Source: Candidatus Cloacimonadales bacterium (GTDB taxonomy: Bacteria > Cloacimonadota > Cloacimonadia > Cloacimonadales > JAFGVF01). Taken from it: a stretch of 64,000 nt of DNA. Location of the stretch: assembly GCA_963663475.2 (NCBI GenBank), contig CAXXJV010000002.1:288001-352000 (forward strand). The letters are read 5' to 3'. A program made the position numbers and the translations under genes. Shown one piece after another: positions 18,995 to 38,890 of the stretch (positions within the stretch are counted from its first letter, which is position 1; each line of letters opens with the position of its first letter). The notes under the pieces were generated by a model. That model saw only the letters and a program-made list of their open reading frames with translations. It did not search any database and was not told the origin of the DNA.

Positions 18995-19054
18995 TTTTGA
19001 ATTGAGAATAAAGGGATATTTGAACAGAGAATAGAGTGATTAAGAGTGAGAAAT

Positions 19055-19167
19055 GTAGGGGCGAAACATCTTTCGCCCAATTAAGAAACCACCCCGTCTT
19101 GGAAATACCAAGACACCCCTCCACAGAGGGGAATTAAGAATGCCGGCAAGATGCCAGCGTTCCCAGT
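19055..19167. repeat. Cluster of three different REP-like palindromes after the transposase
   Basis: GTAGGGGCGAAA..TTTCGCCC; ACCACCCCGTC..CCCCTCCACAGAGGGGAATT; TGCCGGCAAGATGCCAGCGTTCCCAGT. Confidence 0.85.
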
Positions 19168-19185
19168 AAAATAAGGAGTAAGAGA

Positions 19186-19458
19186 ATGGAATTAGAAGTA
19201 ATATTAAAAGAATGGGAAGATGAAGTAAGTGATTTATACAAGTTACTTCAGCAGGATGAGGAAGAGAAGAAGAAGATCAATCTCAAAATGAAAGAGAGTG
19301 AACTAGGTCAACAACGATTGGAGTTAACCAGGAGAATTAAAAAGATAAAAGGCTTAATTGAGCAAAGACGCTTTGAGATATCCGGGTTAAAGAAAGCTGA
19401 ACAAAGGCTTAAAGGCAAGGTAAAGGCAAAGAGGCGATTAACCATAGGAGAAAATTAA
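19186..19458 (+). CDS. Phage coiled-coil hypothetical protein
   Basis: AAGGAG RBS, 90 aa, heptad pattern. Confidence 0.7.
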   Translation: MELEVILKEWEDEVSDLYKLLQQDEEEKKKINLKMKESELGQQRLELTRRIKKIKGLIEQRRFEISGLKKAEQRLKGKVKAKRRLTIGEN

Positions 19459-19462
19459 GGCA

Positions 19463-19648
19463 ATGCTATGCAGGTACTGTAATGGGAAGTTAAAGGTAAT
19501 TAAGACCGAGTGTAATGATAGTGGAGTAATGCGAATAAGACGCTGTAATGATTGCGGAATGGTAATCACTACCTTTGAGAAAAACAGTCAGGAGAAAAGA
19601 GCCAATGGAAAGAAAAGCAGCAATAAGGCTGATTTGGCACAAAAGTAA
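19463..19648 (+). CDS. Zinc-ribbon protein (Ogr/Delta- or NrdR-N-like), candidate transcription regulator
   Basis: CRYC-x20-RRCNDCGMVITTFE. Confidence 0.6.
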   Translation: MLCRYCNGKLKVIKTECNDSGVMRIRRCNDCGMVITTFEKNSQEKRANGKKSSNKADLAQK

Positions 19649-20006
19649 AGACATGGGATGGACACCTGAAGAGCTTCATCAGCAGATAGGTAGTCTAAAC
19701 ATGGTTCGATTTGATAGGATAAGCTGTTGTTCAGGACGGGAGTTATCTCTAATCCTGAACCAGCTTTTTCAGGTTCAAGCATTTGTGGCAGACAGTAAAT
19801 CGGTAAGATATTTGAAGTATCTGTGTAAAGATAATGATAATAAGGAGACCTTGAAAGGTATTCTTAAGCGTTGGAAAAAGCAAAGTGTATATCAAATGAA
19901 TAACAAGCAATTAGCGTTTGCTATATCGTTTTTAAAGGGAGATGAGACTGGAGTTAGGAGTGAGGAGTTGAAGAGGCTCACCACAGAGAACACAGAGAAG
20001 AATTGA
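19605..20006 (+). CDS. GemA/Mu gp16-like protein
   Basis: AIRLIWHKSKDMGWTPEELHQQI..S..ELSLILNQL resembles the GemA N-terminus; Mu-like early context. Confidence 0.5.
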   Translation: MERKAAIRLIWHKSKDMGWTPEELHQQIGSLNMVRFDRISCCSGRELSLILNQLFQVQAFVADSKSVRYLKYLCKDNDNKETLKGILKRWKKQSVYQMNNKQLAFAISFLKGDETGVRSEELKRLTTENTEKN

Positions 20007-20080
20007 GAATTGAGAGTTGAGAGTTGAGAATTTCCTCACACGAAGACACGAAGACACGAAGAAAAAAAAGGAGTAAAATT

Positions 20081-20305
20081 ATGACTATATTTTTATTATT
20101 CACCACGATGGTATTAGCAATAATGCTTACTTTATCATTTTTCGGTTCAACAGGCCGAATATCAGAATTAGAAGAGAAGAACTTTCTTTTAAAGAGTGAG
20201 AACTATCAATTAAAGCAGAAGTTTAACCAATCACAAGACAAGCTAAAGCTTATAAAAGTTCAAGCTAAGAAATTGAGAAATATTCAGAAGTATAGGGGGT
20301 GCTAA
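20081..20305 (+). CDS. Membrane-anchored coiled-coil phage protein
   Basis: AGGAG RBS, N-terminal TM helix followed by heptad repeats. Confidence 0.65.
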   Translation: MTIFLLFTTMVLAIMLTLSFFGSTGRISELEEKNFLLKSENYQLKQKFNQSQDKLKLIKVQAKKLRNIQKYRGC

Positions 20306-20536
20306 ATGGCTGCTTTGCATAAAGCCTTAGTACAGAATGACGGTATATACTGTAATGGCACCTGGTATTATCATAAGGATATCTTAGTGAAAATGGGCCA
20401 AGAGTGCCTGGTGGAGAAAACAGGATTAGGAGAAAGAGCTAATATTTATGATTTAGAAGGTGAGAGATGGGATGGCCAAGCCCAAGCCGTGGTAACGGTG
20501 AGTGTTAAGCCTTTGAAGAGAGGAGTTAGGAAATGA
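20306..20536 (+). CDS. Stand-alone Mu transposase C-terminal-domain-like protein
   Basis: VQNDGIYCNGTWYYHKDILVKMGQECLV...ANIYDLEG pattern. Confidence 0.55.
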   Translation: MAALHKALVQNDGIYCNGTWYYHKDILVKMGQECLVEKTGLGERANIYDLEGERWDGQAQAVVTVSVKPLKRGVRK

Positions 20537-20577
20537 AGTGCTTCACACGAAGGCACGAAGGCACGAAGAAGAAAAAC

Positions 20578-20622
20578 CCCTTAACACAGAGTTTCACAGA
20601 GGTTAAGAGGAGTTTCACAGAG
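20578..20622 (+). repeat. 45-bp repeat, identical copy at 28382-28426
   Basis: CCCTTAACACAGAGTTTCACAGAGGTTAAGAGGAGTTTCACAGAG. Confidence 0.9.
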
Positions 20623-20769
20623 GTTTGAGAGTGGAAAGGATATGAAAAGCGTACTGGAATACGCATTTATACAATTTTAGATATTAACAAATAAGTCAAG
20701 AAGAAATTAAGAATTAAAGAGAATGCGGGCAGGGATGCCCACGTTCCCAGTTAATTAAAGGAGAAAAAG

Positions 20770-21411
20770 ATGTTTAAGTTTTTAGAAGCACGAAAAGAGG
20801 GAAACAAGACTATCTTAAGCGTTCCCAGATGTTTATATGAAGATTTTAGAAATGAAATAATGTTATTAATACATGGTAGTTTACTTATCGTTAATGATCA
20901 TAAGGATTTCCAAAAACAGGTAGAAAAACTGGAAAGTTTTTTGAGTGGTTCGGATCTACATATTTCTCGAGATACTCTTTCGGTATATCTTGCTTACAGT
21001 AATTGTACGGAAATATATTTGACCACACACGGAGTAAAAAGGGGCTGTAAAATGAATGAAAAGGCCACAGCAGAAGCCATGAAAGATGTATTTCGTGCTT
21101 CTGATATTCTAGAAGTTCTTGAGCATTTTTCTGAAAGCTTTGATCAAAGTCTCTTACCCGGGTCAGAGGGTCAGAGAAAGTGTAATGAAAGCACCAGATT
21201 GTGTAAAGAACCAGCTGAGCAAAGCGAGAAGAGGAAGTCTTTGCTTGAATTTCTGCGACGTGATCTGGATGAAGCGATGAAAGCTTTAATACAAACCGGA
21301 CAGTATGCTTATATTTGGCAAGAGAATCTAATAGAGCTGTTTCGCCCGACACTAAACATAATTGATAAAGATGTTCCACCTGCTTCTCAGATAGAAGTGA
21401 AGATAGTTTAG
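20770..21411 (+). CDS. Hypothetical phage protein (overlaps an antisense ORF)
   Basis: AAGGAG RBS; 213-aa ORF; 3' part may be the shadow of the minus-strand gene. Confidence 0.5.
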   Translation: MFKFLEARKEGNKTILSVPRCLYEDFRNEIMLLIHGSLLIVNDHKDFQKQVEKLESFLSGSDLHISRDTLSVYLAYSNCTEIYLTTHGVKRGCKMNEKATAEAMKDVFRASDILEVLEHFSESFDQSLLPGSEGQRKCNESTRLCKEPAEQSEKRKSLLEFLRRDLDEAMKALIQTGQYAYIWQENLIELFRPTLNIIDKDVPPASQIEVKIV

Positions 21412-21457
21412 TAATAGCTTCAGCAACCCGCATTAGGTTGAGTTCATGTTGTTTCAT
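20891..21457 (-). CDS. Antisense moron, hypothetical protein
   Basis: AGGAGG RBS and own TTGACT promoter at about 21513 on the minus strand. Confidence 0.6.
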   Translation of the reverse strand: MKQHELNLMRVAEAITKLSSLLSEKQVEHLYQLCLVSGETALLDSLAKYKHTVRFVLKLSSLHPDHVAEIQAKTSSSRFAQLVLYTIWCFHYTFSDPLTRVRDFDQSFQKNAQELLEYQKHEIHLSWLLLWPFHSFYSPFLLRVWSNIFPYNYCKQDIPKEYLEKYVDPNHSKNFPVFLPVFGNPYDH

Positions 21458-21530
21458 GGGTTCCTCCTAAAGGTAAATTTACAAATAAATACAAGTATTA
21501 ACAAATAAGTCAAGGAAAAAGGAGAAAAAG

Positions 21531-21803
21531 ATGAAACCTAGAGTGATAATCCATTTAGAGTGTGATAGTGTATTAAGAGAACCTAAAGTAGTTAAAGCCT
21601 TGGAAGATTTAGGAATCGAAATAACAGGGACAGCTTATAATCCAACAAGTAAAGTTGATGTGACGATACAGAAAGAATTAACCCTTGAAATGGCTCACAA
21701 GAAGATTGAGAGCATGTTCGAGGGGCTCCCACCCTCTAAAGTAGCCAATATACTAAGTTATATTGCTGATGAGCTAAGAGCTGATACGAGGTTTAAACTA
21801 TGA
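21531..21803 (+). CDS. Small protein with a paralogous segment of the transposase catalytic core
   Basis: IHLECD..RE....ALEDLGIEITGTAYNPTSKVDV vs transposase IYLECD..RE....GLEKLGIEVIGTPYNPTAKVNV. Confidence 0.75.
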   Translation: MKPRVIIHLECDSVLREPKVVKALEDLGIEITGTAYNPTSKVDVTIQKELTLEMAHKKIESMFEGLPPSKVANILSYIADELRADTRFKL

Positions 21804-22093
21804 AATACTATGAAATAATAGACCCTAAAGTAAAAGAAATGACTATACAAGGCATATTAGGGTCTTGTAACAAGTTAAATTTTACCGAAGAGATGCTTGA
21901 AATAGTCAAGAATATATCAGTCAGCCTGGTTCCAAAAGATAAAGGTACTTTATTAATTACAGCCTGCTTTCCTTCCAGACGGGTATTAGTAAAATCAGAT
22001 ACTCTACCAGTTAAAAATGCTGATGATCAAATTGAAATAAGCAAAGAAGAGTATGATGCTTTGGTGGAAGCAAATCATCTGGAGGAAGAGTGA
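21800..22093 (+). CDS. Hypothetical phage protein
   Basis: ATGA overlap with the previous gene; 97 aa. Confidence 0.6.
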   Translation: MKYYEIIDPKVKEMTIQGILGSCNKLNFTEEMLEIVKNISVSLVPKDKGTLLITACFPSRRVLVKSDTLPVKNADDQIEISKEEYDALVEANHLEEE

Positions 22094-22305
22094 AGGAACA
22101 AAGAAAATATGTATGGAAAATCAAGTATAAAAGCGGTAATGGAGACTATATAGAAGTAAGTGTTATTGCATCAGGTTTTGAAGCATTAGCAAAGTGGTTG
22201 TACCGGAGAATATGGGTAAACAATGTAATAACCATTTCCTTAGATAAAGAAATATTGGAGCTTGTTGATGAAGACTCTGATATACTACAATTAGATAACA
22301 ATTAA
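22090..22305 (+). CDS. Hypothetical phage protein
   Basis: GTGA overlap, GGAGG RBS; 71 aa. Confidence 0.6.
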   Translation: MKEQRKYVWKIKYKSGNGDYIEVSVIASGFEALAKWLYRRIWVNNVITISLDKEILELVDEDSDILQLDNN

Positions 22306-22331
22306 CCACCCCGCCTATACAGGCATCAAAG

Positions 22332-22370
22332 AGTTGTCGGAAGTCGCTACTTCGTAAGCAAGACCCGTCA
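22332..22370 (+). repeat. 39-bp repeat, near-identical copy at 25424-25462
   Basis: AGTTGTCGGAAGTCGCTACTTCGTRAGCAAGACCYGTCA. Confidence 0.9.
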
Positions 22371-22382
22371 AAGGAGACAAGT

Positions 22383-23093
22383 ATGAATAACGAACAATTT
22401 ATGGAGTTAAGTCCTGAAGAAAGATTTGAAGCAATCAGGAAGCTCTTAGGAAAGATGGAACTTAGTATGGTAGAGACAGGTAATCTGCTCTCTGAGATTA
22501 AGAGAATGCGAACATACAAAATAAAGGGTTATAAGAGCTTTAGAGAGTTTACTGAAGCTGAGTATAACCTACCCGGTAGAGTGGCCAATTCTTTAACTAA
22601 GATGTATGACTTCTTTATTAGAGAGATGAACCTGGATGAAGATACTATCAATAAGGTTGGTTTTGATAAGTTGGAGTTAATCCACCCAATAGTAAAAGAT
22701 ACAAGTTATGAAGTTCAGGAGGAGTGGGTAAAAACAGCTGAAGACCTTACATATCCTGAGTTAAATGAGAAAGTAAAAGAGATAAAAGTAAAAGCCCGGG
22801 AAGAAGCAAAGACCTTAAAAGATGTCTTAGTAGAACAATACTTTGAGAACATGCTGGGATACTTCAACTGCTCAAAGAGAGAATTAAATTACAAGTTAGC
22901 TCTTTATTTCCAGGATATGGATTTGGAAGAAGTTAATGAAGTGATCAGGAAGCAACAAAGGAAGTTTGAGGAAGAAATAGAAGGGTCTCACACGAAGGTA
23001 CGAAGACACGAAGAAGATAAGGCCCTTAACACAGAGGATACTTTTCCTAAGGGGAGTTTCGTAGAGATTTTAAGAGAAAAGGATAAAAGATGA
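22383..23093 (+). CDS. Phage protein with DUF3102-like N-terminal region
   Basis: VETGNLLSEIK...YKSFREFTEAEYNL...ANSLTKMYD. Confidence 0.55.
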   Translation: MNNEQFMELSPEERFEAIRKLLGKMELSMVETGNLLSEIKRMRTYKIKGYKSFREFTEAEYNLPGRVANSLTKMYDFFIREMNLDEDTINKVGFDKLELIHPIVKDTSYEVQEEWVKTAEDLTYPELNEKVKEIKVKAREEAKTLKDVLVEQYFENMLGYFNCSKRELNYKLALYFQDMDLEEVNEVIRKQQRKFEEEIEGSHTKVRRHEEDKALNTEDTFPKGSFVEILREKDKR

Positions 23094-23149
23094 AAAAAGG
23101 AATCAAACACAGTGAAATTAGTGGATAGATTAAAAAAGGAGAAAGAATA

Positions 23150-23761: not shown

Positions 23762-23823
23762 GAGAAGACTTTTACACGAATTTAAACGAATTTAAACCAA
23801 TTAACACGAATTAGGAGAAGATA

Positions 23824-24138
23824 ATGAATGATAAAATAAAAACTATTGATGATGAAATAGATGAAATGATAGAAAATGCAAAAAGTGCAAGCCCGGTTAA
23901 TAAGGAGGACTTGCACTTGGTTTCTGATGAAGAGTTAAGTTCTCTTGAGATAAAGAACAGGAGAATCCGCAAAACTGTTGATGTAGCAACAGATAGAATT
24001 CTTAAAACCCTTCATGCTTTGTTAGATGATGGACGTCATCACGAGGCGTCCAAGCTCATCTTTCACATTGAAATACCTTGTGTTAAGCGAGGCGTTGGCA
24101 AGCCTGTGCTTAGCTATAAGGTAGAGAGAAACTGCTAA
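23824..24138 (+). CDS. Hypothetical phage protein
   Basis: AGGAG RBS; 104 aa; 3' end overlaps the antisense gene. Confidence 0.55.
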   Translation: MNDKIKTIDDEIDEMIENAKSASPVNKEDLHLVSDEELSSLEIKNRRIRKTVDVATDRILKTLHALLDDGRHHEASKLIFHIEIPCVKRGVGKPVLSYKVERNC

Positions 24139-24393
24139 ATCAATATCCTGAGAGGCAATTCGGTTAATCTTATTTGAACATTGTTCTGGGAGACACTCCT
24201 GGAAAATACGAGAGAGAACTTTGGTTCTTTCTATGAGCACTGTCTGTTCAATAGATTCATACTTTTTGCCTCTCGCTTTTTTTATGACTTCTTCAGGAAA
24301 GACATATTTCAAAAAATCTTTGGCGAGTTTTTTCTGATTAGTTTCGTAGTAATAGAAGTCAAAGTTACCTTTATAATGAAAGGTTTCGTGCAT
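24022..24393 (-). CDS. Antisense moron, hypothetical protein
   Basis: AAGGAGG RBS and TTGACA (24446-24451, minus strand). Confidence 0.65.
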   Translation of the reverse strand: MHETFHYKGNFDFYYYETNQKKLAKDFLKYVFPEEVIKKARGKKYESIEQTVLIERTKVLSRIFQECLPEQCSNKINRIASQDIDLAVSLYLIAKHRLANASLNTRYFNVKDELGRLVMTSII

Positions 24394-24469
24394 AATATCC
24401 TCCTTTGGAATTAATTATTTCAATAATCGAAGGATAAACTAAAAATGTCAAGTTTTTAAAGGAGAGAAG

Positions 24470-25353: not shown

Positions 25354-25539
25354 AGAGTTAGGAGTTAGGAGTTAGGAGTTTAAGAGGCTCACACGAAGGC
25401 ACGAAGACACGAAGAAGAAGACCAGTTGTCGGAAGTCGCTACTTCGTGAGCAAGACCTGTCATTAGAGTAATTAGTGTAATTAGCCTGGGTTGGCATAGC
25501 TTTAGCGACGCCACCTGGATAGATTAAAAGGAGTTGAAG

Positions 25540-27018
25540 ATGAGTAGGTTCGCCAAGATATTAGCAATTAGTAGAATAGCTAAAAAAACAGGTAATAATG
25601 GCCTTTCCAAAAAAGACCAGGAGAAGTTGTTTAATGCCCTGGTAAAAGATATTACCACCCCGCCCAGGGGCACCCCTCCACAGAGGGGAATTAAAAAGAG
25701 CAATCTTTCTAATTTTACCAAAGTGGCAGAAGAGATAATGGGAGATAATCCCCAAGTAACAAAGTCTTATACAAAATTAGTAGAGAAATGGATAGAGCCT
25801 TATTCAGCAGGGCAAAAGCAGCTAATATTCAGTCAATACCAATCCTTTAGTCAAACAGCTTGGTTTCGTTCTTTAACTAATGACTATGTGTCTAATCTGC
25901 AAGGAAGAGGAGTTACTAAGGTTCAAATCTTGGCTTATATGGATGACAGAACAACCGAGATATGCCAGGCCATGCACGGAAGAGTCTTTGATATATCTTC
26001 TTATAGCATTGACCCTGATTTTGTTACTTATGAGAAGATTGAGTCTATGGGTTATGGAAGTATGCCAACTAAAGATATGAAGGTAATGCTACCTCCTTAT
26101 CATTTTAATTGCAGGACTACTTTTGTTACTTATGAAGAGGCGACTAATGATTTCGATAAAATCAAACAGAAAATATATGATGTAGAAAGTTTAACAAGCA
26201 AAGATGTTAAAACGATTATGGAGCCTCTCAAGGGGGCTGAATGGCTTAATAAATCAAAAGAGAGCCAGCACTATCAGAAGCATGGGATTGACCAAGGCTT
26301 AAGCAGAGAGAAATACAAGCAACAAATTATTGACAGTTTACAAGACAATGATAATATGTACTTGGCAGTTAATAAAGGTAACAAAAACCTTACTTTAACA
26401 ACGGTTAAATATCATCATCTAAGTGATAAAGGTGTTAAAAAATACCTATTTACTATCTTCCTGGTTAAAGAAGGCAAGGTTGTTACCAGTCATCTTAAGC
26501 CAGAGAATGAAGTTTTGCCAAAGGTTAAAGATAAGGCAATAAAAGTTGTTAGTATTAATAATGGTAAGCAAAGAATAATAAAGGAAGCTATCATGAAAAA
26601 AGAAGATTATTGGAACAGGCATAACTCTTATGACAGCATTATAGCAGAGGTTGAGGATAACAAGAAGTGGGGTAATTATCCTCTCAACTGCCTTGTTACC
26701 TGGTACCAATATGTACCCAGTGAGTTAGAAGATGATGAAGACTGGCATTGGGAATTAGATAGATCTATTCCTGCCCGTTATGATATTCATATCCTGCTGA
26801 TGAATGACTATAACTTCACCCAGGAAGAAAGAAACTTAATAGAGAGAACTGATAAAAAACTCTTAGATAACATTGATTATTACTTTAAGAAGATTAAAGT
26901 TATAAGCCCAGATGAACTGGCAGAGTTTTTGATTTGGTTGCAGGAAGCGAGAGAAGCAGAGAAGAAAGAAGAGTCTCACACGAAGACACTAAGCCACGAA
27001 GAAAACACAAAAAAATAA
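25540..27018 (+). CDS. MuF (gpF/SPP1 gp7) minor head protein with C-terminal toxin-like extension
   Basis: DDRTTEICQAMHGRVF, LPPYHFNCRT; then a HYQKHG domain and an acidic C-terminal domain. Confidence 0.8.
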   Translation: MSRFAKILAISRIAKKTGNNGLSKKDQEKLFNALVKDITTPPRGTPPQRGIKKSNLSNFTKVAEEIMGDNPQVTKSYTKLVEKWIEPYSAGQKQLIFSQYQSFSQTAWFRSLTNDYVSNLQGRGVTKVQILAYMDDRTTEICQAMHGRVFDISSYSIDPDFVTYEKIESMGYGSMPTKDMKVMLPPYHFNCRTTFVTYEEATNDFDKIKQKIYDVESLTSKDVKTIMEPLKGAEWLNKSKESQHYQKHGIDQGLSREKYKQQIIDSLQDNDNMYLAVNKGNKNLTLTTVKYHHLSDKGVKKYLFTIFLVKEGKVVTSHLKPENEVLPKVKDKAIKVVSINNGKQRIIKEAIMKKEDYWNRHNSYDSIIAEVEDNKKWGNYPLNCLVTWYQYVPSELEDDEDWHWELDRSIPARYDIHILLMNDYNFTQEERNLIERTDKKLLDNIDYYFKKIKVISPDELAEFLIWLQEAREAEKKEESHTKTLSHEENTKK

Positions 27019-27028
27019 AGGAGTTATT

Positions 27029-27709: not shown

Positions 27710-27742
27710 AAAGAGCAGGCATCAAAACCTGCTCTTTTTTTT
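27710..27742 (+). terminator. Rho-independent terminator
   Basis: AAAGAGCAGG-catcaaaa-CCTGCTCTTT followed by a T run. Confidence 0.85.
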
Positions 27743-27754: not shown

Positions 27755-27791
27755 CTAAACTGCAATTTAATTTCTCAATCTTAGAACTAAA
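27755..27791 (+). repeat. Internal copy of the prophage end motif (right-end orientation)
   Basis: CTAAACTGCAATTTAATTTCTCAATCTTAGAACTAAA. Confidence 0.88.
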
Positions 27792-27830
27792 GGCGTATTC
27801 AATACGCCCCTACATTCTCAATTCTCAATT

Positions 27831-28325
27831 CTAAATTCTCAATTCCTGAAGTGTCATTTTCACTGCCAATTCTAAGAAAGGGCTAGGTTTTCTTCCGTGT
27901 TTTTTCATATTGATAGCAATAGCCCAAGCAGTTTGGGTTATTTTTTTATCTATCAAGTCTTGTTTCTTGGGTCTTTTACTTCTTTTCATGCTTTGAGCTT
28001 TAGACCAGGCACTTTTTATCTCATTTTTTACTATTCCCTTCTTGCGAACCCATTCTTTAATCTTATCAACTGGGGGCATATGGGGCTTGATTCCTTCATG
28101 TAGGTACTTAGGATATTTGGTAGAACCTGAGAGTTTCCCACCTTCAGCAACATATACCAGAATATAGGTTTCAGTATCAGACACCACAGTTTTAGTCTGG
28201 ATAGAGTTCTTTAAATGCCCTGTAACGACCATTTTCTCACTTTCTACGATGTTTATTGCCCTTGCCCTTATCTTGTCAGCAATTAAACCTAATTCTTCTT
28301 TTAAATGCCTTTTTACGCTTTCCAT
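27831..28325 (-). CDS. HK97 gp10 / Mu gpG-like virion morphogenesis protein
   Basis: VTGHLKNSI, YPKYLHEG..PHMPP, PSPFLE. Confidence 0.75.
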   Translation of the reverse strand: MESVKRHLKEELGLIADKIRARAINIVESEKMVVTGHLKNSIQTKTVVSDTETYILVYVAEGGKLSGSTKYPKYLHEGIKPHMPPVDKIKEWVRKKGIVKNEIKSAWSKAQSMKRSKRPKKQDLIDKKITQTAWAIAINMKKHGRKPSPFLELAVKMTLQELRI

Positions 28326-28510
28326 CAATTCTCCTTATTAATCTATCCACTAATTTCACTAATTACACTAATTAAGAAATACCCTTAACACAGAGTTTCA
28401 CAGAGGTTAAGAGGAGTTTCACAGAGTTTTTAAACTCTCAATTCTCAACTCTCAATTCTTCTCTGTGTTCTCTGTGTTCTCTGTGGTGAGTCTCTTCAAC
28501 TTCTCACTCA

Positions 28511-30305: not shown

Positions 30306-30337
30306 ATATTTCTCCTTTTATTCCCCTACATTCCTCA

Positions 30338-31606
30338 CTAAACAACCATCACTCCATCAATCACTCTTTCAGAATGTCTTAAATCATAAAGCATAGCTAA
30401 AGACCAAAATTTATCTCCATGATGTTCAGTGCTTTCTGCATTATAGGAGAAGATGTTAGTACGGTTAGCAGATCTCTTTATTGATAAAATATGATTAAGC
30501 AGTGAAGGATCATTTGGTATTAATAGTTTCTTGTCTTCGAAGCCTCTTTTTAATCTTTTGGCAAGCCTTTCTTTAACAGCAGGAGCAAAGCTATATCCCT
30601 CAATTACATTAGGATAAAGGTAAGATAAATCTTCCCAGAGATTATAACCTATACCACCTCTATCTATAGCAAATCCATCTGCATCAGATTGTCTTATCAA
30701 GTTTATAAAAAACTCTTTCTGATAGGCAAAAGTCTCTCTCTTTAAGTCCTTTATATAATTAACAACCATTAACTTATCATCATTAATAAAGGCTCCTGTG
30801 ATAGCAGTTTCATCTTTCTTTCTTCCAATATCAGCAGCATAAAACATTTTAGTGTCTTCAGGGGTTGGATGTTCGTTAACATAAAGACAGGGTTCTATCA
30901 GGTTGTAAGGAATATAAGAGTCTGTAGTATCTAATGGCAGGCATTCATAAGCTTGAGCAAATTCTTCAGGTGTAAAAAGACTTCTTAATTCATCAACATT
31001 AATATCAAGTCCTTCTTCTTTGGCTGTATGAATAGTGATTAAATGCTTAGAAAAAGCATCATTCTTATCCCATATTTCCCAAAACTTATCTATCCTACTC
31101 TTAGGAGTCGAGATTACTGTTACTCTTCCTTGAGCTGCTGTAATAGCAGGAATAATAGCTTTCCATACTTCCCTGTCCTGGATAATAAAAGCAAACTCAT
31201 CTAAATATACATCACCTGCAAAACCTCTAGCAGTCATCCAATTAGTCGCCAAAGCTTTAATACTTTTACCATTGGGCATTAAGATTTCATGTTCAGTATC
31301 ATTAAAAGCTTCTATTCCCATTGCTTTAAGATGACTTCTTACATGGTTCATCACAATAACAGCATTATCTTTAGAAGCTGAAACTATTAACTGGTCCTTG
31401 TTATTAATTAATGAACCAATAATCATCTCTAGGCCTGATAGAAAAGAAAATCCTATTTGTCTCGATTTATTAGCAATCCTATACCTGGATTTATCAGCTA
31501 AGAACTTCTTTTGATATATTCTTAAGTTCTTGATACAGTATTGCTGTATAGCAGTCCTGACAAAAGCAGGTACCTTATCTGTTGACCATATTTGCCCTTT
31601 TTTCAT
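30338..31606 (-). CDS. terL: Terminase large subunit
   Basis: YQKKFLAD, NKSRQIGFS, VYLDEFAF, ISTP, ADIGRKKD, HGDKFWSLA. Confidence 0.93.
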   Translation of the reverse strand: MKKGQIWSTDKVPAFVRTAIQQYCIKNLRIYQKKFLADKSRYRIANKSRQIGFSFLSGLEMIIGSLINNKDQLIVSASKDNAVIVMNHVRSHLKAMGIEAFNDTEHEILMPNGKSIKALATNWMTARGFAGDVYLDEFAFIIQDREVWKAIIPAITAAQGRVTVISTPKSRIDKFWEIWDKNDAFSKHLITIHTAKEEGLDINVDELRSLFTPEEFAQAYECLPLDTTDSYIPYNLIEPCLYVNEHPTPEDTKMFYAADIGRKKDETAITGAFINDDKLMVVNYIKDLKRETFAYQKEFFINLIRQSDADGFAIDRGGIGYNLWEDLSYLYPNVIEGYSFAPAVKERLAKRLKRGFEDKKLLIPNDPSLLNHILSIKRSANRTNIFSYNAESTEHHGDKFWSLAMLYDLRHSERVIDGVMVV

Positions 31607-31813
31607 TTTTCTCCTTTAATCTATCCACGAATTACACTAATTACACTAAGAAATAGCCACCGAAAACACTGAAAACACCGAATATCTTAAATTCGTAAAT
31701 TATTAAATTCTTAAATCTTCTCTGTGTTCTCTGTGTCTCTGTGGTAAAATCTTCTTTCTTCAATTCCTCACTCCTAATTCCTAACTCTTAGCTTGGTCCT
31801 GTCTACAACTTTC

Positions 31814-31875
31814 GGTATAGATGTATATATCTATACCAAAACATATTGACACCCTTTAAAAAAAGAGCAATTTTA
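31814..31875 (+). promoter_or_regulatory. Late control region: 24-bp near-palindrome next to TTGACA
   Basis: GGTATAGATGTATATATCTATACC (31814-31837), TTGACA at 31846, between divergent head operons. Confidence 0.55.
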
Positions 31876-31907
31876 TCCATGTAATTAATTTTATTAAGGA
31901 GGCTTGA

Positions 31908-33587: not shown

Positions 33588-33588
33588 T

Positions 33589-33999: not shown

Positions 34000-34007
34000 A
34001 GAAAATT

Positions 34008-34457
34008 ATGATGAGACACATTAAAATTCAATGTAAAGAAATCGCTCGTAAGATGCTGATGAAACACGAAGGTCTAAGACTTAAACCTTATTCTTGCTCA
34101 GCAGGAAAACTAACAATTGGTTTTGGGCGAAATTTGGAAGACAAGGGAATCACTGAAGTTGAAGCACATAATCTACTTGATAATGATATTGATTCTCTTG
34201 TCTCTCAACTGATTAAAACTTATCCCTGGTTTAGGGAACTCAATGATGTGAGAAAGGCTGTTGTTATTGATATGGCCTTTAACTTAGGACTAGCAGGCTT
34301 CTCTGCTTTTAAAAAGACTATTGCTTACCTTACTCAGCATGATTACTCTAATGCTTCTCGCGAAATGCTTAACAGCAAGTGGGCTATGCAAGTGGGTTAT
34401 CGTGCCAATGAGCTATCTAAGCTAATGGAGAATGGAGAATTGAGAAGTGAGAAATAA
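34008..34457 (+). CDS. Endolysin, T4-like lysozyme (GH24)
   Basis: HEGLRLKPY.CSAGKLTIGFGRNL, DMAFNLG, EMLNSKWAMQVG.RA. Confidence 0.92.
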   Translation: MMRHIKIQCKEIARKMLMKHEGLRLKPYSCSAGKLTIGFGRNLEDKGITEVEAHNLLDNDIDSLVSQLIKTYPWFRELNDVRKAVVIDMAFNLGLAGFSAFKKTIAYLTQHDYSNASREMLNSKWAMQVGYRANELSKLMENGELRSEK

Positions 34458-34504
34458 CCGGGAACGCTGACATCTTGTCGGCACACTAAATATAAGGAGA
34501 AAAT

Positions 34505-35026: not shown

Positions 35027-35036
35027 AGGTGAAATA

Positions 35037-35468
35037 ATGAAAATGATAAGAATAAAGACCGGTAGTGAACTCCATGAGTTTTACGGAACTATTGATGTTA
35101 CCCCTGAAATAAAGCATATGGTAGAAGAAGAATGTGTTTATAATACTGGTCTTTCTTATCGTTTTGGTAAGTATTTTGTTGATAAGATTCAGCTTAATCT
35201 GAGTATTTCAGCTGAGGACTACGAAAATCTCTACTATAAAGTTATGAACTTGAATGAGTGGATTATTGCCTGGGAAACCTTAAACGGCTACCAATGGAGA
35301 AAATCTCGTTCTCCTCTCCCATATCCCTCTAAAATTCGCTTTATTAACGATGCTGTTACCCTAAAAATTGAGTCTGAACCTTACACTATACCAATGCAAA
35401 ACATGACTAATATTACTATGAATACTATCTGGAATGAATCTACTCCGGATAATACTATATGGAACTAG
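35037..35468 (+). CDS. Hypothetical tail protein
   Basis: 143 aa in the tail block. Confidence 0.5.
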   Translation: MKMIRIKTGSELHEFYGTIDVTPEIKHMVEEECVYNTGLSYRFGKYFVDKIQLNLSISAEDYENLYYKVMNLNEWIIAWETLNGYQWRKSRSPLPYPSKIRFINDAVTLKIESEPYTIPMQNMTNITMNTIWNESTPDNTIWN

Positions 35469-35631
35469 GAGTGAGGAGTGAATAGAACACAATGACACAG
35501 ATTAAACAGATTTACACAGATAAGAAAGATTTAATAATTTCGGTGTATTCGGTGTTTTCGGTGGCTAATATTTTCTTATCTTAAGACTCTGTGTTAAGGA
35601 AATTTAAAAGAATATAAAAAAAGGAGAAAGT

Positions 35632-36459
35632 ATGATAAATTTACCCGGTCCTGATACTACAGATTGGGGCACTCTCTATAACAGTGCTATTAATCAACTC
35701 GAAACTATGATTAATGCCAAAACAACAGAAATTTCATCTCTACAAACTCTTGTTAGCCAACTTCAAGCAGCTTTAAGCGAAATAGAAATGGATACGCAAC
35801 ATATAGATCACAATGGTACACCACTTTCTGATGTTGTCCATAATTTGGAAGGATCTTTTAACAATCCAATAACCCCAGGAACTAAAACCAAAATAACTTA
35901 TGATGCTAAAGGTTTTGTGACAGGAGGTACTAACCTAACTGAAGGAGATATTCCTGCACTTTCAATATCTAAAATCATAGGGCTTGAGGATATAATTAAC
36001 ATGGTGTTAGTTGATATGGATAGAGTAGAAATATCTGCTTCTATTCGTAATACAAATGGTGGAATTAGAGTCTCATGTTTTACTAATCCTCCTGTACCAG
36101 TACAATCATGGTCTGTAATGTTGGAATGGAAAGGGTCAATTTTTTATGATGTCCGTTCTTCCTCAAGTGAAAGCTTTATCAATATGGGTAATTATCCAGA
36201 AATACCTGATGGCCAATTAGTTAATATTATGGTGGCAGCAATATCTGGAACCAGTATTAAAAAAAAGGACTATTCACATACTTATAATTATGTGGCAACT
36301 TCCATAGATTTAAGAGTAAAAGCTGTAGAACATGAACTCGCACCTCAAGCTCTCATGGACAGAATAGCTCAAGATGATAATATTCTGAATGAATTAGTTA
36401 ACAAGCTTCAACACTCTGGCACATTAGTACAGCGGCTTAGTGAGGTTCTTGCCCGATGA
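35632..36459 (+). CDS. Tail fibre-like protein
   Basis: Coiled coil plus GTKTKITYDAKGFVTGG..DIPALSISKIIGL fibre repeat. Confidence 0.65.
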   Translation: MINLPGPDTTDWGTLYNSAINQLETMINAKTTEISSLQTLVSQLQAALSEIEMDTQHIDHNGTPLSDVVHNLEGSFNNPITPGTKTKITYDAKGFVTGGTNLTEGDIPALSISKIIGLEDIINMVLVDMDRVEISASIRNTNGGIRVSCFTNPPVPVQSWSVMLEWKGSIFYDVRSSSSESFINMGNYPEIPDGQLVNIMVAAISGTSIKKKDYSHTYNYVATSIDLRVKAVEHELAPQALMDRIAQDDNILNELVNKLQHSGTLVQRLSEVLAR

Positions 36460-36701
36460 TAAAGACCTTAAGAGACCTCAATGTTTATGAGTGGATGCAA
36501 GGCAAAACTGTAGCCACTAAACGCATTGATATTAGCCTTGAATATAAAGCTCCTATCTACTCTCTTGTAGATAAAAAGGAAGAAATTAACATTTTCGATA
36601 AAAATATAATCACTGAATCTGATGACTTTCCTGCTACACCTGAACCAGGTCAAATTGTTAGAAAAAATGGAATAACATACATATATAGAGGAGAAGAATA
36701 A
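36456..36701 (+). CDS. Small tail/fibre-associated protein
   Basis: C-terminal FPATPEPGQIVRKNGITYIY motif. Confidence 0.5.
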   Translation: MIKTLRDLNVYEWMQGKTVATKRIDISLEYKAPIYSLVDKKEEINIFDKNIITESDDFPATPEPGQIVRKNGITYIYRGEE

Positions 36702-36901
36702 TGAATTTAACCGAATATCTCGAACAAAAAAGAAAAAGTTTAATAGCTACCAACAAGAACCTATCAGATGAAAAACTAAGAGTTGAAGGTGCTTGGTTAA
36801 TCTTACAAGAGATTGAAGAAATTGTAAGAGCCCCTAAATCCCCTAAAGGGGACTTTGAGGAAGAGAATCCCAAATCAAAAACAAAAAAGAGAGGTAAATA
36901 A
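36701..36901 (+). CDS. Small coiled-coil protein (fibre chaperone-like)
   Basis: 66 aa, LRVEGAWLILQEIE; contains the in-frame palindromic repeat. Confidence 0.5.
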   Translation: MNLTEYLEQKRKSLIATNKNLSDEKLRVEGAWLILQEIEEIVRAPKSPKGDFEEENPKSKTKKRGK

Positions 36902-37485
36902 TGGCTTGGAAGAAAATAGTAGATTCATCATTTACTATTAATGGTAAGGCACTAGACGGTCCAATTGATATAACAAAAGAAGATGTTGGACTTGGTAATG
37001 TAGATAACATTTCCAGAGAACAACTAATTGCTAGTCTAACAGCTGATGATATTCCTATAATTACTATCTCTAAAGTAACAGGTCTCCAAGGTGCCTTAGA
37101 TGCAAAGGTTCCTACTAGCAGGACTATTGCTGGTAAGTCCTTAACAGCTGATATATCTCTTGCTAAGGCTGATGTAGGACTGGCAAACGTAGAAAATAAA
37201 TCACCTGAAGAACTTTCATCACTTATCAGAAGTCAAATTGTGGCTGATGATGTACCACTGCTTGAAATAACAAAAATAAATGGATTAGCTGATTTCCATG
37301 TGGTTCTAGCCTCTGAAATTAGCTCTAAAGTGTCTAAAACCACTACCATTAATGGAAAAGCTTTAGATGCTAATATATCTCTTGGGGGACAAGACATCAT
37401 CAGACCAGAGTCTTCTCTCCCCGCATCTGGTTCCCCTGGTGAAATGATAAGATTCTCAGGTAATACTTATATTTGGAAGGCATAA
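36901..37485 (+). CDS. Tail fibre repeat protein
   Basis: Repeats INGKAL..I.(L)..DVGLGNVDN / DVGLANVEN. Confidence 0.7.
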   Translation: MAWKKIVDSSFTINGKALDGPIDITKEDVGLGNVDNISREQLIASLTADDIPIITISKVTGLQGALDAKVPTSRTIAGKSLTADISLAKADVGLANVENKSPEELSSLIRSQIVADDVPLLEITKINGLADFHVVLASEISSKVSKTTTINGKALDANISLGGQDIIRPESSLPASGSPGEMIRFSGNTYIWKA

Positions 37486-37486
37486 G

Positions 37487-38125
37487 ATGTGGGTGAAAGT
37501 AGCTGATAGAGAAGAAATAGCTAAGTTTGAGATTACGGCTGAAGCTAACAAAGTTACTAGTCTAATTGGTGAAACACCAGATAGTTTTATGGCCTCTGAA
37601 GATGATTTAGGCCTTATGCTTCTTTGCAAAGTTCCTCTTAAAATTTCCTCTTTGGATATCCAATTAGAAGATGATGCTGAAATTAACCTAGAATGTTGGC
37701 AATATGAGGGACAGAACTCTCATTTAATCTTTTCTAAATCAGGCTTTACTGGTATTCTAGGTCTTAATACTATTCCTTGTGATATTATGCTTAGTCCTGG
37801 TAAATACTTTCTAAGAGTGATTAGTAGAGGTATCTTGCTTAAAAATACTACAAAAATCTCTACAAGTCATCACTTCCTGTCAGTTGTTGGAGGCTCAAGT
37901 GTAACAAATGACCTTATTCCTGATTATAACGAACTTTTAAATCCTACTGTTTGGTTTGGTATTTATAATATCCAAATACAAGTAGCAAATAAATCCTTAT
38001 ATCTAGGTATAACTGATGATCTTCTAAATAATGATGATCTCATACTAGGAGCTTTTTATCACTGTATTAAAAGTGGCTCCTTAACTATGTATGTCTTTGA
38101 CGGTACTCAACAATATTCAAAATAA
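37487..38125 (+). CDS. Putative receptor-binding/tail tip protein
   Basis: 212 aa, beta-rich, follows the fibre genes. Confidence 0.45.
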   Translation: MWVKVADREEIAKFEITAEANKVTSLIGETPDSFMASEDDLGLMLLCKVPLKISSLDIQLEDDAEINLECWQYEGQNSHLIFSKSGFTGILGLNTIPCDIMLSPGKYFLRVISRGILLKNTTKISTSHHFLSVVGGSSVTNDLIPDYNELLNPTVWFGIYNIQIQVANKSLYLGITDDLLNNDDLILGAFYHCIKSGSLTMYVFDGTQQYSK

Positions 38126-38188
38126 CTGGGAACGCTGACATCTTGTCGGCATCTTAAATAACTGGGAATGTGGGCATCCTTGCCCGCA
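38125..38188 (+). repeat. Tandem pair of GGGAAC-type REP-like palindromes (others at 19141, 20724, 34457)
   Basis: ACTGGGAACGCTGACATCTTGTCGGCA and ACTGGGAATGTGGGCATCCTTGCCCGCA. Confidence 0.85.
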
Positions 38189-38204
38189 TCTTAAAGGAGA
38201 AATA

Positions 38205-38546
38205 ATGCAATATAAAACTAATATCAAGACTCTTAAAAGAGTATATGCAATTGCCAAAGAAGTAGGATTGGAGAATATCTTAATGGGCTCCAATGAAAAC
38301 AAAGAAGTGAAATTTGACCTCAAAGTGCTTTTAGATGGTATCTTTGAAAAAGATTTAGTTAATGAATTCTGTCAAACCGTTACAGGAGAGACTAAGGACT
38401 TTGAAGAAAACTTAAAAATACCAGGACTGGAGAGTGTCATACTGGGTTTTTTCGATGCTATCAAAGAGGACTTGCAAGAATCAAGCATCTTAAAAGCAAT
38501 GATAGTAACGCAAGTCAAGAATCAGACAACCCCTTCTACGATATAA
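38205..38546 (+). CDS. Tail assembly chaperone; -1 frameshift product would end at 38626
   Basis: Upstream of TMP; slippery G GGT TTT TTC at 38444-38453; -1 frame open to TAA 38624-38626. Confidence 0.75.
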   Translation: MQYKTNIKTLKRVYAIAKEVGLENILMGSNENKEVKFDLKVLLDGIFEKDLVNEFCQTVTGETKDFEENLKIPGLESVILGFFDAIKEDLQESSILKAMIVTQVKNQTTPSTI

Positions 38547-38683
38547 GCTTTGTCTTATATCAAAATAATATTAACCCGGATAACTTAGAGATTGATGAAG
38601 CATTTCATTATTTGGAAAAGATTTAATTTACTTGTAGGGGCGTATTGCATACGCCCTTCCATTGGCGGTGTGGTTTCATTCCA

Positions 38684-38791
38684 TCACCTTAAATATTTAT
38701 CTATCGGATTACTTCCATCATCTGATAAGATAAACCAAATGATAAAAGCTATAGGTACTAAAAATACTAATATCGCGATTATAAGCCACAT
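38684..38791 (-). CDS. 35-aa antisense membrane peptide (not in ORF track)
   Basis: GGAG RBS; MWLIIAILVFLVPIAFIIWFILSDDGSNPIDKYLR. Confidence 0.6.
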   Translation of the reverse strand: MWLIIAILVFLVPIAFIIWFILSDDGSNPIDKYLR

Positions 38792-38890
38792 GGGTAACTC
38801 CTTTCTTCTCTGTGTCCTCTGTGTCTCTGTGGTGAGTTCTTCATTCCTGACTCTTAACTCCTAACTAAATAATAACCAAGTAGGTATAAT

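Follow-up and report, generated by a model that had tools for sequence, protein, structure and literature searches.

Classical REP elements are recognised by a GTAG head. In the BIMEs of E. coli, REP hairpins are combined with other short motifs in mosaic order, in extragenic DNA and mainly in the spacers of core operons. The cyanobacterial STRR are direct repeats of heptamers, and Elhai and colleagues reportedly described, in 2008, small dispersed repeats inserted in tandem heptamers of Nostoc and Anabaena. Lambdoid phages have single conserved boundary or linker stretches between their modules, which are peculiar to phages, and the hairpins of integron cassettes carry attC core sites. According to one published account, REPINs are inherited vertically and RAYTs are missing from elements that move horizontally (bioRxiv 10.1101/2021.07.10.451892). 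TAACTGA repeats are found in Beggiatoaceae, Cyanobacteria and Bacteroidetes, and most sets are located just upstream of start codons (PMC4679880).

We analysed a window of 64,000 nucleotides, meaning the whole stretch of DNA considered here, from a Candidatus Cloacimonadales bacterium. It contains a Mu-like transposable prophage of 26,881 bp (16099-42979, plus strand) with 53-nt terminal inverted repeats; over their first 60 nt the two ends match at 56 positions, without interruption in the first 53. The prophage is bordered by a 5-bp target duplication, AAAAC, and both ends carry what look like repeated transposase-binding sites (16100-16225 and 42835-42975). Three copies are present in the genome, the two further ones with the target duplications ATTAA and TAATG. 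The prophage encodes a DDE transposase (match to phrog_310, E 3.6e-37), a repressor, DUF3164, Mu F, portal, large terminase, protease, capsid, lysozyme and tape measure proteins. The range 19000-38870, which the initial annotation had assigned to a phage, is inside this prophage, although the true extent is larger.

Our favoured, though by no means certain, reading is that the repeat clusters in its spacers are a REP/BIME-like mosaic of small non-coding repeats of the host lineage. These would have colonised almost every intercistronic spacer of the resident multi-copy prophage, and two kinds of module are distinguished. The first comprises hairpins of REP type, in which the 5' head is conserved and the stem co-varies (the CTGGGAAYG and GTAGGGGCG families and the CCCC..GGGG hairpins). 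The second comprises short arrays, namely stop-bearing GAG-type heptamers and 'triple CAC' arrays, the latter made of about three units of CACNNNG plus 1-3 nt and present throughout the host order as arms of long hairpins. The clusters are as follows.

18995-19185, plus strand: hairpin (REP) cluster (folding z-scores -3.8 and -5.9) with a GTAG-headed REP (19055-19078), two CCCC/GGGG-type hairpins and a minus-strand CTGGGAACG REP (about 19138-19166), absent in copy C, which has a different 42-nt REP there instead.
19950-20080, plus strand: unstructured array stack (z-score -0.35) of GGAGTGA x2.7, CACAGAGAA x2, AGAATTG x4.9, which includes the stop codon of gene 19605-20006, and ACACGAAG x3.1, then AAGGAG and ATG at 20081.
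20537-20769, plus strand: mixed cluster of CACGAAGG x2.9, a composite CCCTTAA-CACAGAGTTT module (found again at 28383-28429 and in host DNA), a small hairpin (20649-20664) and a minus-strand CTGGGAACG REP (about 20721-20749).
22336-22366, plus strand: 31-nt hairpin element, only in this window's copy and missing in copies A, B and C, where the flanks are otherwise identical; it belongs to a 45-nt family with other members at about 25430-25470 and in host DNA, there upstream of a Y1 transposase gene.
22985-23149, plus strand: ACACGAAG x3.1 array and degenerate CACAGAG module; here a CACGAATT-type array is found in copies A, B and C instead.
23762-23823, plus strand: CACGAATT-type array (TTTAAACGAA x4.2) running into the ribosome-binding site of gene 23824.
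25354-25700, plus strand: array/hairpin cluster of GAGTTAG x3.7, beginning 2 nt past a stop codon, ACACGAAG x3.1, the 45-nt hairpin element, TGTAATTAG x3 and a CCCCTCC..GAGGGG hairpin (about 25670-25690); as the cluster spans this stretch, the TTG start listed at 25534 is probably too far upstream.
26940-27028, plus strand: GCAGAGAA x3.1 and three CACGAAG-like units in the 3'-terminal part of the Mu F gene, just ahead of the ribosome-binding site of gene 27029.
27782-27845, minus strand: GTAG-headed REP and TGAGAAT x4.6 array, the latter including the stop codon of gene 27831-28328.
28329-28510, minus strand: mixed cluster with a long-hairpin fold (z-score -5.0), made of CACAGAGAA x3, ATTGAGA x3.4, inverted CACAGAGTTT x4, AATTAGTG x3 and a ribosome-binding site; copies A, B and C have an unrelated 50-nt hairpin here.
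31607-31907, no single strand: divergent spacer separating the genes of large terminase and protease (z-score -2.9) with CACTAATTA x2.7, CACCGAAAA x2.8, TCTTAAAT x4, TTCTCTGTG x3 and TCCTAAC x3.3.
34424-34504, plus strand: AATGGAG/GAGAAGT heptamers where the lysozyme gene ends, followed by a single CTGGGAACG-type REP (34459-34485).
35465-35631, plus strand: array cluster (z-score +0.37) of AGGAGTG x2.1 over a stop codon, ACACAGATTT x2.8 and inverted CACCGAA x2.8.
38126-38204, plus strand: direct doublet of CTGGGAAYG REPs (z-score -3.7).
38634-38866, minus strand: mini-cassette within the tail operon, with GTTAGGA x3.1, CACAGAG x3, a ribosome-binding site, a predicted 35-aa hydrophobic ORF (38684-38791) and a GTAG-headed REP (38634-38657).

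All the repeat families that the initial annotation had reported were found within a few bases of where it had placed them. Tandem arrays were identified using Tandem Repeats Finder at a period of 7-10, with a minimum of 2.5 copies and of 80% matches. There were 24 of them in 19000-38870, whereas 50 dinucleotide-preserving shuffles averaged 0.42 (sd 0.67, maximum 2). The repeats are thus non-random, and they are stacked as mixed clusters at gene junctions. Several clusters reach into ORFs at their 3' side (19950-20006, 26976-27003 and 34424-34453, among others), and both copies of CCCCTAAAGGGG are within ORFs. The motif counts in the region, the rest of the window and the whole genome were: CACGAAG, 16/3/174; CACAGAGAA, 9/0/59; GTAGGGGCG, 3/0/22; GGGAACGC, 4/0/53; CCCCTAAAGGGG, 2/0/8; CACGAATT, 3/0/142; and CACTAATT, 7/3/228. 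Enrichment was weak for CACCGAA (5/4/131) and GAGTTAG (10/7/542); the bare heptamer GAGAATT (11/20/1134) was not enriched, only its tandem runs were.

The repeats had also been described as nearly absent from the host flanks. Within the window this is correct, with three tandem arrays in 37,119 nt (1-16098 and 42980-64000), but it does not extend to the whole genome, as other parts of the chromosome harbour these families too; 38 of 112 arrays (unit with at least three G or C, outside copies of the window's phage) were found in C1:670-750 kb. Per kb of intergenic DNA, we counted 5.25 arrays in the phage copies vs 0.35 in the rest of the genome. Array packing in phage gene junctions is about 15-fold above that of the host, and with these densities the objection that ordinary host intergenic DNA might be equally rich, raised in the initial annotation itself, does not hold.

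The CTGGGAAYG hairpins belong to the REP elements of the host genus. A perfect 7-bp stem follows 55 of 150 heads vs 1 of 144 reversed-head controls, and stem pairs 3 and 4 co-vary, being found as GC, CG, AT, TA and TG. Every one of the six remaining genomes of the genus contains these repeats, with 12-48 matches per genome, as do 9 of 11 genomes of the host's family; beyond that family 4 of 29 genomes have matches, one to four each, and the distribution tracks close RAYT homologues. The RAYT of genome G000 has inverted REPs with a GGGAAYG head on its flanks, and three forward and eight reverse CTGGGAACG REPs flank a RAYT homologue in G005 within 1.5 kb. It seems likely that CTGGGAAYG is the REP population of the RAYT (HUH/Y1) transposase of the genus, and its members would be inserted and removed as single-stranded DNA hairpins. 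The REPs beside the RAYT of G000 are of a sister type, unlike that in the phage, which does not sit easily with our favoured reading. For the GTAGGGGCG family, no RAYT was found.

Additionally, 32 of the 61 CTGGGAAYG REPs are in 158 kb of Mu-like prophage DNA, at 0.07-0.29 per kb by prophage copy or group (0.186 in the window copy) vs 0.009 per kb elsewhere, and by a crude ORF map 34 of the 61 are intergenic. Such enrichment in a phage runs contrary to the chromosomal, vertically inherited REPINs of the published account (bioRxiv 10.1101/2021.07.10.451892), and counts against our favoured reading.

We also looked in the host for the gene classes that had been named as neighbours of similar repeats. 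RAYT, GxxExxY and DUF559 genes were present: one RAYT with inverted REPs on either side, another three Y1 transposases, four PDDEXK_3 (GxxExxY) genes and one DUF559 gene, all outside the window, as had been supposed. The GxxExxY and DUF559 genes adjoin such repeat clusters. A four-helix-bundle (PF05635) gene was not found in the host. That the host has the same families and that their local density is high are the only points in favour of the phage sites acting as decoys that titrate host repeat-binding proteins, e.g. RAYT or nucleoid proteins. Three integrated copies add little to about 30 chromosomal REPs, unless the phage replicates, and there was no sign of any binding protein or benefit; we regard this explanation as highly improbable.

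The idea of a code private to the phage had to be abandoned, the families being part of the host lineage's repertoire and carried by other genomes of the genus and order. (CACAGAGNN)x3 was found in 8 of 41 genomes and 6 of 26 genera, the reversed-pattern control in none. Across the order, triple CACAGAG arrays lie between housekeeping genes, where they make up the arms of long hairpins, and the mosaic of CACGAAG, GAATTGA and REP was also seen in host DNA of G004 and G006 and elsewhere in G000. From its distribution, (CACGAAGN)x3 looks more phage-borne than host-borne: 12 of 14 copies in G000 are in the window's phage and one is in another prophage, and among the six other genomes of the genus just two contain it, each at a single locus. 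This bias towards the phage speaks against our favoured reading, and so does the failure to connect the tandem arrays with any enzyme.

The initial annotation had proposed a breakpoint check, and differences among the prophage copies and related phages indeed concentrate in the repeat clusters. Most 500-nt bins showed no differences between the three copies. Otherwise identical, they differ mainly in single modules inserted, deleted or replaced (a 31-nt insert, a 36-nt REP, a 42-nt REP and a 58-nt hairpin) and in two swapped stretches, 28327-28490 and 31616-31806, the latter replaced in copy B. The relatives L013 and L014 have arrays at homologous junctions, some units being identical and some other. 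Among 70 joints from contigs of four metagenome runs, 15 were listed, and 27 of their 30 endpoints, by our own count, were in clusters covering about 15% of the stretch; many joints have short sides (24-60 nt) and could come from contigs that switch from one paralogous module to another. The modules are discrete, also present in host DNA and the fastest-changing part of the phage.

These data bear on the possibility that the clusters exist as recombination joints, with modules giving homology for gene swaps between related phages, and stop-bearing heptamers and a ribosome-binding site keeping any junction viable. Gene-skipping contig joints (19139>20646, 19139>24670 and 20635>23090) end in or at most 10 nt from clusters, and replaced clusters are exchanged entire, along with the neighbouring start region. 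In L013, window 19925-23146 is missing and the REP block of 19078-19137 has been relocated beside DUF3164, which also agrees with joints. Heptamer arrays overlap a stop codon in 4 of 9 cases in the window copy (shifted-control mean 0.3, maximum 2), and period-7/8 arrays do so in 3 of 6 cases in L013. Outside the phage, however, there is no such association (5 of 83 vs a control mean of 4.0), and in hosts the same modules occur between housekeeping genes. Gene-content breakpoints must be intergenic in any case, and cluster-free junctions are mostly overlapping genes and thus no fair control; the short sides of many contig joints weaken the case further. Divergent patches usually have one edge within a gene, the pattern of ordinary homologous recombination, and a causal role of the repeats in recombination is therefore unsupported. 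Taken together, we consider joints an unlikely reason for the clusters. As a host-lineage mosaic, the clusters could still serve as portable linkers, built of a stop module, a spacer or hairpin and a ribosome-binding site, and as homology patches for cassette exchange; these roles, and the cause of the phage's richness in modules, we can only infer.

Another characteristic that may suggest a role is orientation. In GAG-heptamer and CACAGAG/CACGAAG arrays the purine-rich strand was the sense strand in all 14 cases with unambiguous local gene direction, and CAC arrays have a near-constant three units, conserved across the order, which hints at selection rather than neutral colonisation and speaks against our favoured reading. 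Array-only clusters were unstructured (z -0.35 to +1.6), hairpin clusters strongly structured (z -2.9 to -5.9), and in the fold of 31607-31750 the CACAGAG arm pairs with a CACCGAA-type arm partly through G-U pairs, possible in RNA only. This would suit an RNA-level code of phage or host, made of sites for a multimeric RNA-binding regulator or of processing or stabilising sites setting cistron expression; the TAACTGA heptamers of Beggiatoaceae were proposed to be sites of a post-transcriptional regulator (PMC4679880). However, CACTAATT, CACCGAA and the REPs lie in both orientations relative to genes, an Rfam search gave no family match, the prophage has just one convincing intrinsic terminator (27710-27737), and no candidate binding protein was identified. 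Modules are also present or absent between otherwise identical prophage copies, therefore each of them is dispensable. Such a code appears to us rather doubtful.

Of the known systems, integron cassettes similarly have small genes set apart by imperfect hairpins of varying sequence, but the hairpins here have a conserved 5' head in place of attC core sites, and no tyrosine recombinase or integrase of integron type was found among the 43 ORFs scanned. As with lambdoid linkers, short sequences are shared at gene borders where the gene content of related phages differs, although here they are multi-family repeats common to the host chromosome. Like the dispersed repeats of Nostoc and Anabaena, the modules are insertions of about 20-40 nt, present or absent in otherwise identical paralogous sequences and nested among tandem repeats and hairpins; the phylum and sequences are different, and at least one family here has an identifiable RAYT partner. 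With STRR and TAACTGA they share two to several tandem stop-bearing heptamers in intergenic DNA, in unrelated lineages. The phage heptamers, unlike TAACTGA, begin at or across the stop codon of the upstream gene, and many unit families are mixed with 8-10-nt arrays and hairpins.

The likeness to REP/REPIN-RAYT systems of Pseudomonas and Enterobacteria includes tens of copies of a short palindrome whose 5' head is conserved while its stem co-varies, lineage-specific variants, a Y1/HUH RAYT between inverted REPs and co-distribution of REP and RAYT; one family here is GTAG-headed. In contrast to those systems, more than half of the CTGGGAAYG copies are in transposable prophages, related phage contigs of other samples carry them too, and the phage REPs are single or direct doublets rather than REPIN-style inverted doublets, a further point against our favoured reading. 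Similarly, E. coli BIMEs and the clusters both mix REP hairpins with several short motifs in mosaic order in extragenic DNA, whereas the partner motifs here are tandem 7-10-nt arrays and their site is a phage genome together with accessory loci.

The genome from which the window derives (3.30 Mb, 33% G+C, two contigs, C1 and C2) has host genes that fit Cloacimonadales, namely genes with type IX secretion sorting domains and an Rnf cluster. We identified window positions 16099-42979 as a Mu-like transposable prophage. It encodes an HTH repressor, a DDE transposase (phrog_310, E 3.6e-37), DUF3164 (E 7.5e-49) and a Phg_2220_C protein, together with head/tail and lysis genes (Mu F, portal, large terminase, protease, capsid, lysozyme, tape measure). 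The markers of the Mu-like class, a DDE transposase with an adjoining repressor and Mu-type head genes, are thus present, and no MuB-like ATPase was recognised among the prophage genes. At the prophage ends 56 of 60 positions are identical over the first 60 nt. Terminal inverted repeats as in Mu-like phages are found, and all three copies have 5-bp target duplications (AAAAC for the window copy, ATTAA and TAATG). The other two lie at:

C1:1362917-1391188, copy A, duplication ATTAA, transposase gene interrupted by an insertion sequence
C2:1-14149 (left half, start of C2) and C1:1-23265 (right half, start of C1), second further copy, TAATG outside both halves

Since TAATG stands at both outer ends of the split copy, C1 and C2 join through the phage. 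The insertion sequence in copy A (about 1.45 kb, C1:1364716-1366180, corresponding to window 17895) occurs eight times in the genome, and its copy at C1:689410-690863 encodes HTH_Tnp_1 and rve domains. The transposase gene also contains a perfect, in-frame and variable tandem repeat of 33 nt x4.5 (window 17112-17259), and the related phage contig L013 has an 11-nt x13 array at the matching place. In the middle of the prophage there is a strong bidirectional terminator (27710-27737), followed by a stretch that resembles the phage right-end transposase sites (27756-27790) and then by the neck, portal and terminase block on the opposite strand (27831-31606). One metagenome contig runs from window 27791 into right-end sequence, which, together with the right-end-like site, suggests phage variants with another arrangement.

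The gene junctions of the prophage carry clusters, i.e. mixed stacks of short tandem arrays and REP hairpins. Every repeat family listed in the initial annotation was located at the place given for it or a few bases away. Between 19000 and 38870 we counted 24 tandem arrays with a period of 7-10, against 0.42 +/- 0.67 (maximum 2) in 50 dinucleotide-preserving shuffles; the true host flanks of the window contain 3 arrays in 37.1 kb. With intergenic DNA defined from a crude ORF map, the array density was 5.25/kb in the phage copies (51 in 9.7 kb) and 0.35/kb in the rest of the genome (127 in 359 kb), so that an equal density in ordinary host intergenic DNA, which would have spoken against the proposed phage association, is clearly not the case. 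For intergenic arrays with units of at least 3 G or C the values were 2.68/kb and 0.15/kb. The GAGAATT heptamer is enriched as tandem runs but not as a bare heptamer.

Near-identical copies of the prophage differ in single REP or array modules, so that a comparison of them traces recent gains and losses as they occurred in nature. The three copies have no differences in most 500-nt bins, and what differences there are occur as short patches. A 31-nt hairpin element at 22336-22366 is unique to the window copy. Copy C lacks the 36-nt REP at 19131-19166 and has another REP, of 42 nt, close by. Copies A and B alone have a 58-nt hairpin block at 36687; in the window copy the genes 36456-36701 and 36701-36901 overlap by one base, and in A and B the block, which brings its own AAGGAG, parts the two genes and alters the upstream C-terminus and the downstream start region. 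Other modules are replaced: the other copies have an unrelated 50-nt hairpin instead of the 165-nt cluster at 28327-28490, the stretch 31616-31806 is replaced in copy B, and a CACGAATT-type array is substituted for the CACGAAG array at 22990. In L013, arrays stand at homologous junctions with partly different units (CAATTAG, ATTAGGA), about 1 kb takes the place of window 19925-23146, and the REP block of 19078-19137 adjoins DUF3164.

The initial annotation had proposed the clusters as joints of a cassette architecture, at which breakpoints would fall. We aligned contigs of four metagenome runs from four studies to the region. For the 15 joints listed out of 70, 27 of the 30 endpoints lie, by our own count, in clusters that cover about 15% of the stretch, and some joints skip genes (19139>20646, 19139>24670, 20635>23090); the sides are short (24-60 nt), and many joints are probably the same module at another junction. 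The longer divergent patches between copies (22787-23145, 24035-24458, 36435-37541, 38080-38566) mostly run from a point inside a gene to a junction, a pattern that ordinary homologous recombination would give equally. The locus is a concrete test case for whether repeat-bounded junctions promote phage mosaicism.

The REP initially described as GGGAACGC was redefined as an (A)CTGGGAAYG head followed by a 7-bp stem with a 3-5-nt loop. A perfect 7/7 stem stands behind 55 of 150 heads in this genome and behind 1 of 144 reversed-head controls. Among the 34 distinct CTGGGAAYG hairpins, stem pairs 3 and 4 vary between GC, CG, AT, TA and TG (3-5 standard pair types), so the palindrome behind the conserved head is kept by compensatory changes, as expected of a REP. 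In the prophage of the window this family is represented by:

19138-19166, 20721-20749 and 34459-34485, single REPs
38126-38204, direct REP doublet

The inverted doublet (REPIN) form was not seen among the phage REPs. The family pattern has 58 matches in this genome, and 12-48 in each of the six other genomes of the genus. Of the 11 genomes in the family 9 are matched, and of the 29 outside it 4, with 1 to 4 matches each; reversed-pattern controls gave 0-1. The dominant stem variant differs from genome to genome.

A host search for the RAYT, GxxExxY and DUF559 genes, which the initial annotation had named as neighbours of similar repeats, found all three: a RAYT at C1:198709-199278, four PDDEXK_3 genes and one DUF559 gene. 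The RAYT contains an HVH motif and shows YLPHYD in its N-terminal part; inverted sister-type REPs with the head GGGAAYG stand on both sides of the gene. Its homologues with E below 1e-55 (G001-G006, G008, G009, G015, G016, G031) have a distribution close to that of the REPs. All genomes with at least 4 pattern matches (G000-G006, G008, G009, G016, where G000 is the window's genome) have such a homologue, though these genomes are related and hence non-independent; where a close homologue is lacking there are 0 to 2 matches, and G031 has a close homologue and 0 matches. In G005, 3 forward and 8 reverse CTGGGAACG REPs lie within 1.5 kb of the RAYT homologue. Because the RAYT is flanked by REPs and the distributions across genomes are close, the CTGGGAAYG family is the REP population of the RAYT of the genus. 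Cleavage or mobility of the REPs may depend on the RAYT; the evidence is indirect, in that prophage copies with no other difference have or lack single REPs. A 53-nt unit with the REP GGGAAYGGGTCGCGGGATTCYAGCCCGCG forms tandem arrays at C1:199440-199750, directly 3' of the RAYT gene, and at about 20 other sites of the genome. A second hairpin family, GTAGGGGCG, has a fixed GTAG head and variable hairpins (19055, 27782-27805, 38634) and 22 genome copies; no partner gene was found for it, the flanks of all four Y1_Tnp genes being free of this REP.

The usual view of REP and REPIN elements is that they are chromosomal and inherited vertically, as partners of a transposase that has been domesticated. 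Of 61 CTGGGAAYG REPs in the genome, 13 are in copies of this phage, 19 in a second Mu-like prophage (two inverted copies, at about C1:147-182 kb and C1:2684-2704 kb) and 29 elsewhere (3.14 Mb). Their density by copy or group is 0.07-0.29 per kb in prophages compared with 0.009 per kb elsewhere, and more than half of the copies thus lie in transposable prophage DNA, which makes up about 5% of the genome. The cores of the second prophage carry mirrored CTGGGAAYG sets, 8/8 on one strand in each; another DUF3164 gene is located at C1:1926 kb. Four genuine REPs and several of the phage's array families stand on an IMG/VR contig whose DUF3164 protein is 57% identical.

The arrays also occur in host DNA. 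(CACAGAGNN)x3 with at most 1 mismatch was found in 8 of 41 genomes and 6 of 26 genera of the order (control, none). In genomes of the order these arrays make up the two arms of a long hairpin, ACCACAGAG..CACAGAG..CACAGAG followed by an A-rich loop (40-60 nt), the inverse and GTGAAAA, for which no match was found in the literature searched; such a hairpin is a defined target for RNA- or DNA-binding studies. Triple CACAGAG arrays also stand alone between ordinary genes (class II tRNA synthetase, FolD, uridine kinase). In the window's genome CACAGAG-armed hairpins are found in series just 5' of GxxExxY (PDDEXK_3) genes within polysaccharide loci, and the DUF559 gene adjoins such array clusters. 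The densest host hot spot of the phage's arrays is C1:668-748 kb (loci L001-L003, polysaccharide/glycosyltransferase genes), where all four PDDEXK_3 genes lie, one with an internal TGA and two preceded by the hairpin series. We rejected the view that a GxxExxY mobile element ends in these arrays, since none of 15 ORFs beside CACAGAG hairpins in five other genomes is GxxExxY; those with Pfam matches are ordinary cellular genes, including housekeeping enzymes. The literature searched contained nothing on such repeats in Cloacimonadota or on GxxExxY-linked repeats.

Host DNA of G004 and G006, two of the genomes compared, has a mosaic of the phage type: GAGAGTT runs, REP, ..GACTCAC, (CACGAAGN)x3-5 and then GAATTGA runs. 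Composite modules, for example a CAC array followed by AGAAAWACCCTTAA and the CACAGAGTTT block, are common to phage and host DNA, which together with the shuffles rules out chance or slippage alone as the origin of the clusters. The (CACGAAGN)x3 family looks more phage-borne (12 of 14 copies in the window's genome are in this phage and 1 in another prophage; within the genus it occurs in only 2 of the other 6 genomes, each time at a single locus). GAGAATT/GAGAATG runs were matched in 5 of 6 genomes of the genus with a poorly designed pattern that gave 0 in the window's own genome and no clean reversed control.

We then considered what the clusters may do. An RNA-level code, proposed initially, may apply. 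Clusters with hairpins fold far better than shuffles (z -2.9 to -5.9), whereas pure array stacks do not (z -0.35 to +1.6). Rfam 15 gave nothing relevant at E up to 1 for window 15000-44000 and only sub-threshold matches, to plant microRNA precursors and similar, for five host loci with long hairpins. In our own reading, the purine-rich strand is the sense strand in all 14 direction-unambiguous GAG-type heptamer and CACAGAG/CACGAAG arrays, and four more fit this rule only if they lie in the large-terminase leader or serve one predicted ORF:

38684-38791, minus strand, predicted 35-aa hydrophobic ORF in the tail operon, preceded by an array leader of its own and followed by a GTAG REP

The listed 90-aa ORF 38592-38864 is probably spurious. 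The other repeat families occur in both orientations. For the CAC-type arrays in the genome, the downstream gene is co-oriented for 19 of 28 intergenic host arrays, on a crude ORF map and with many copies of one dispersed element among them. Heptamer arrays lie over a stop codon in 4 of 9 cases in this copy (shifted-control mean 0.3) and in 3 of 6 period-7/8 arrays of L013; as genome-wide stop-codon markers they were dismissed, with 5 of 83 outside the phage against a control of 4.0. A scan gave 78 promoter-like sites (65.5 +/- 7.6 expected) and 20 terminator-like sites (11.0 +/- 2.9 expected), and only that at 27710-27737 is convincing, so the clusters are not classical terminators. The initial suggestion of decoy sites for host repeat-binding proteins found no support.

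The clusters are real and non-random and turn over module by module; the data establish what the repeats are and how they are distributed, that one family is linked to a RAYT, and that modules are gained, lost and replaced as discrete units. In our best description the clusters form a REP/BIME-like mosaic, in which repeats of the host lineage saturate the spacers of a Mu-like phage present in several copies. The REPs would insert via single-stranded DNA, their enrichment in the phage would perhaps come from transpositional replication and high copy number, and the clusters could be used as stop/spacer/ribosome-binding-site linkers or as recombination patches. A bolder and in our opinion rather improbable extension is that the RAYT-dependent REPs of the hosts have their main reservoir, and also a horizontal vehicle, in the transposable Mu-like phages of the Cloacimonadales, and that these phages have made a co-oriented kit of modules (all-frame-stop heptamers, triple CAC arrays, REP hairpins and a ribosome-binding site) into universal intercistronic linkers. 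Such linkers would leave every cassette junction expressible and drive gene shuffling.

An integron cassette array requires IntI and attI/attC, and no integron-type tyrosine recombinase was present in the 43 ORFs of window 14278-44709 (Pfam, PHROGs), so the prophage differs from such a system. The likeness to BIMEs, in which REPs are mixed with other recurrent short motifs in variable order, is seen in phage and host clusters alike: the same blocks (GNCTCAC with a CAC array, the CCCTTAA-CACAGAGTTT module, GAATTGA runs and REP) recur in varying order. If phages carry REPs between hosts, the 'strictly vertical' picture of these elements would need amending. Published REPIN-RAYT systems are described (bioRxiv 10.1101/2021.07.10.451892) as chromosomal, vertically inherited and kept off mobile elements, whereas here the heavy REP load in phages is the unusual point.
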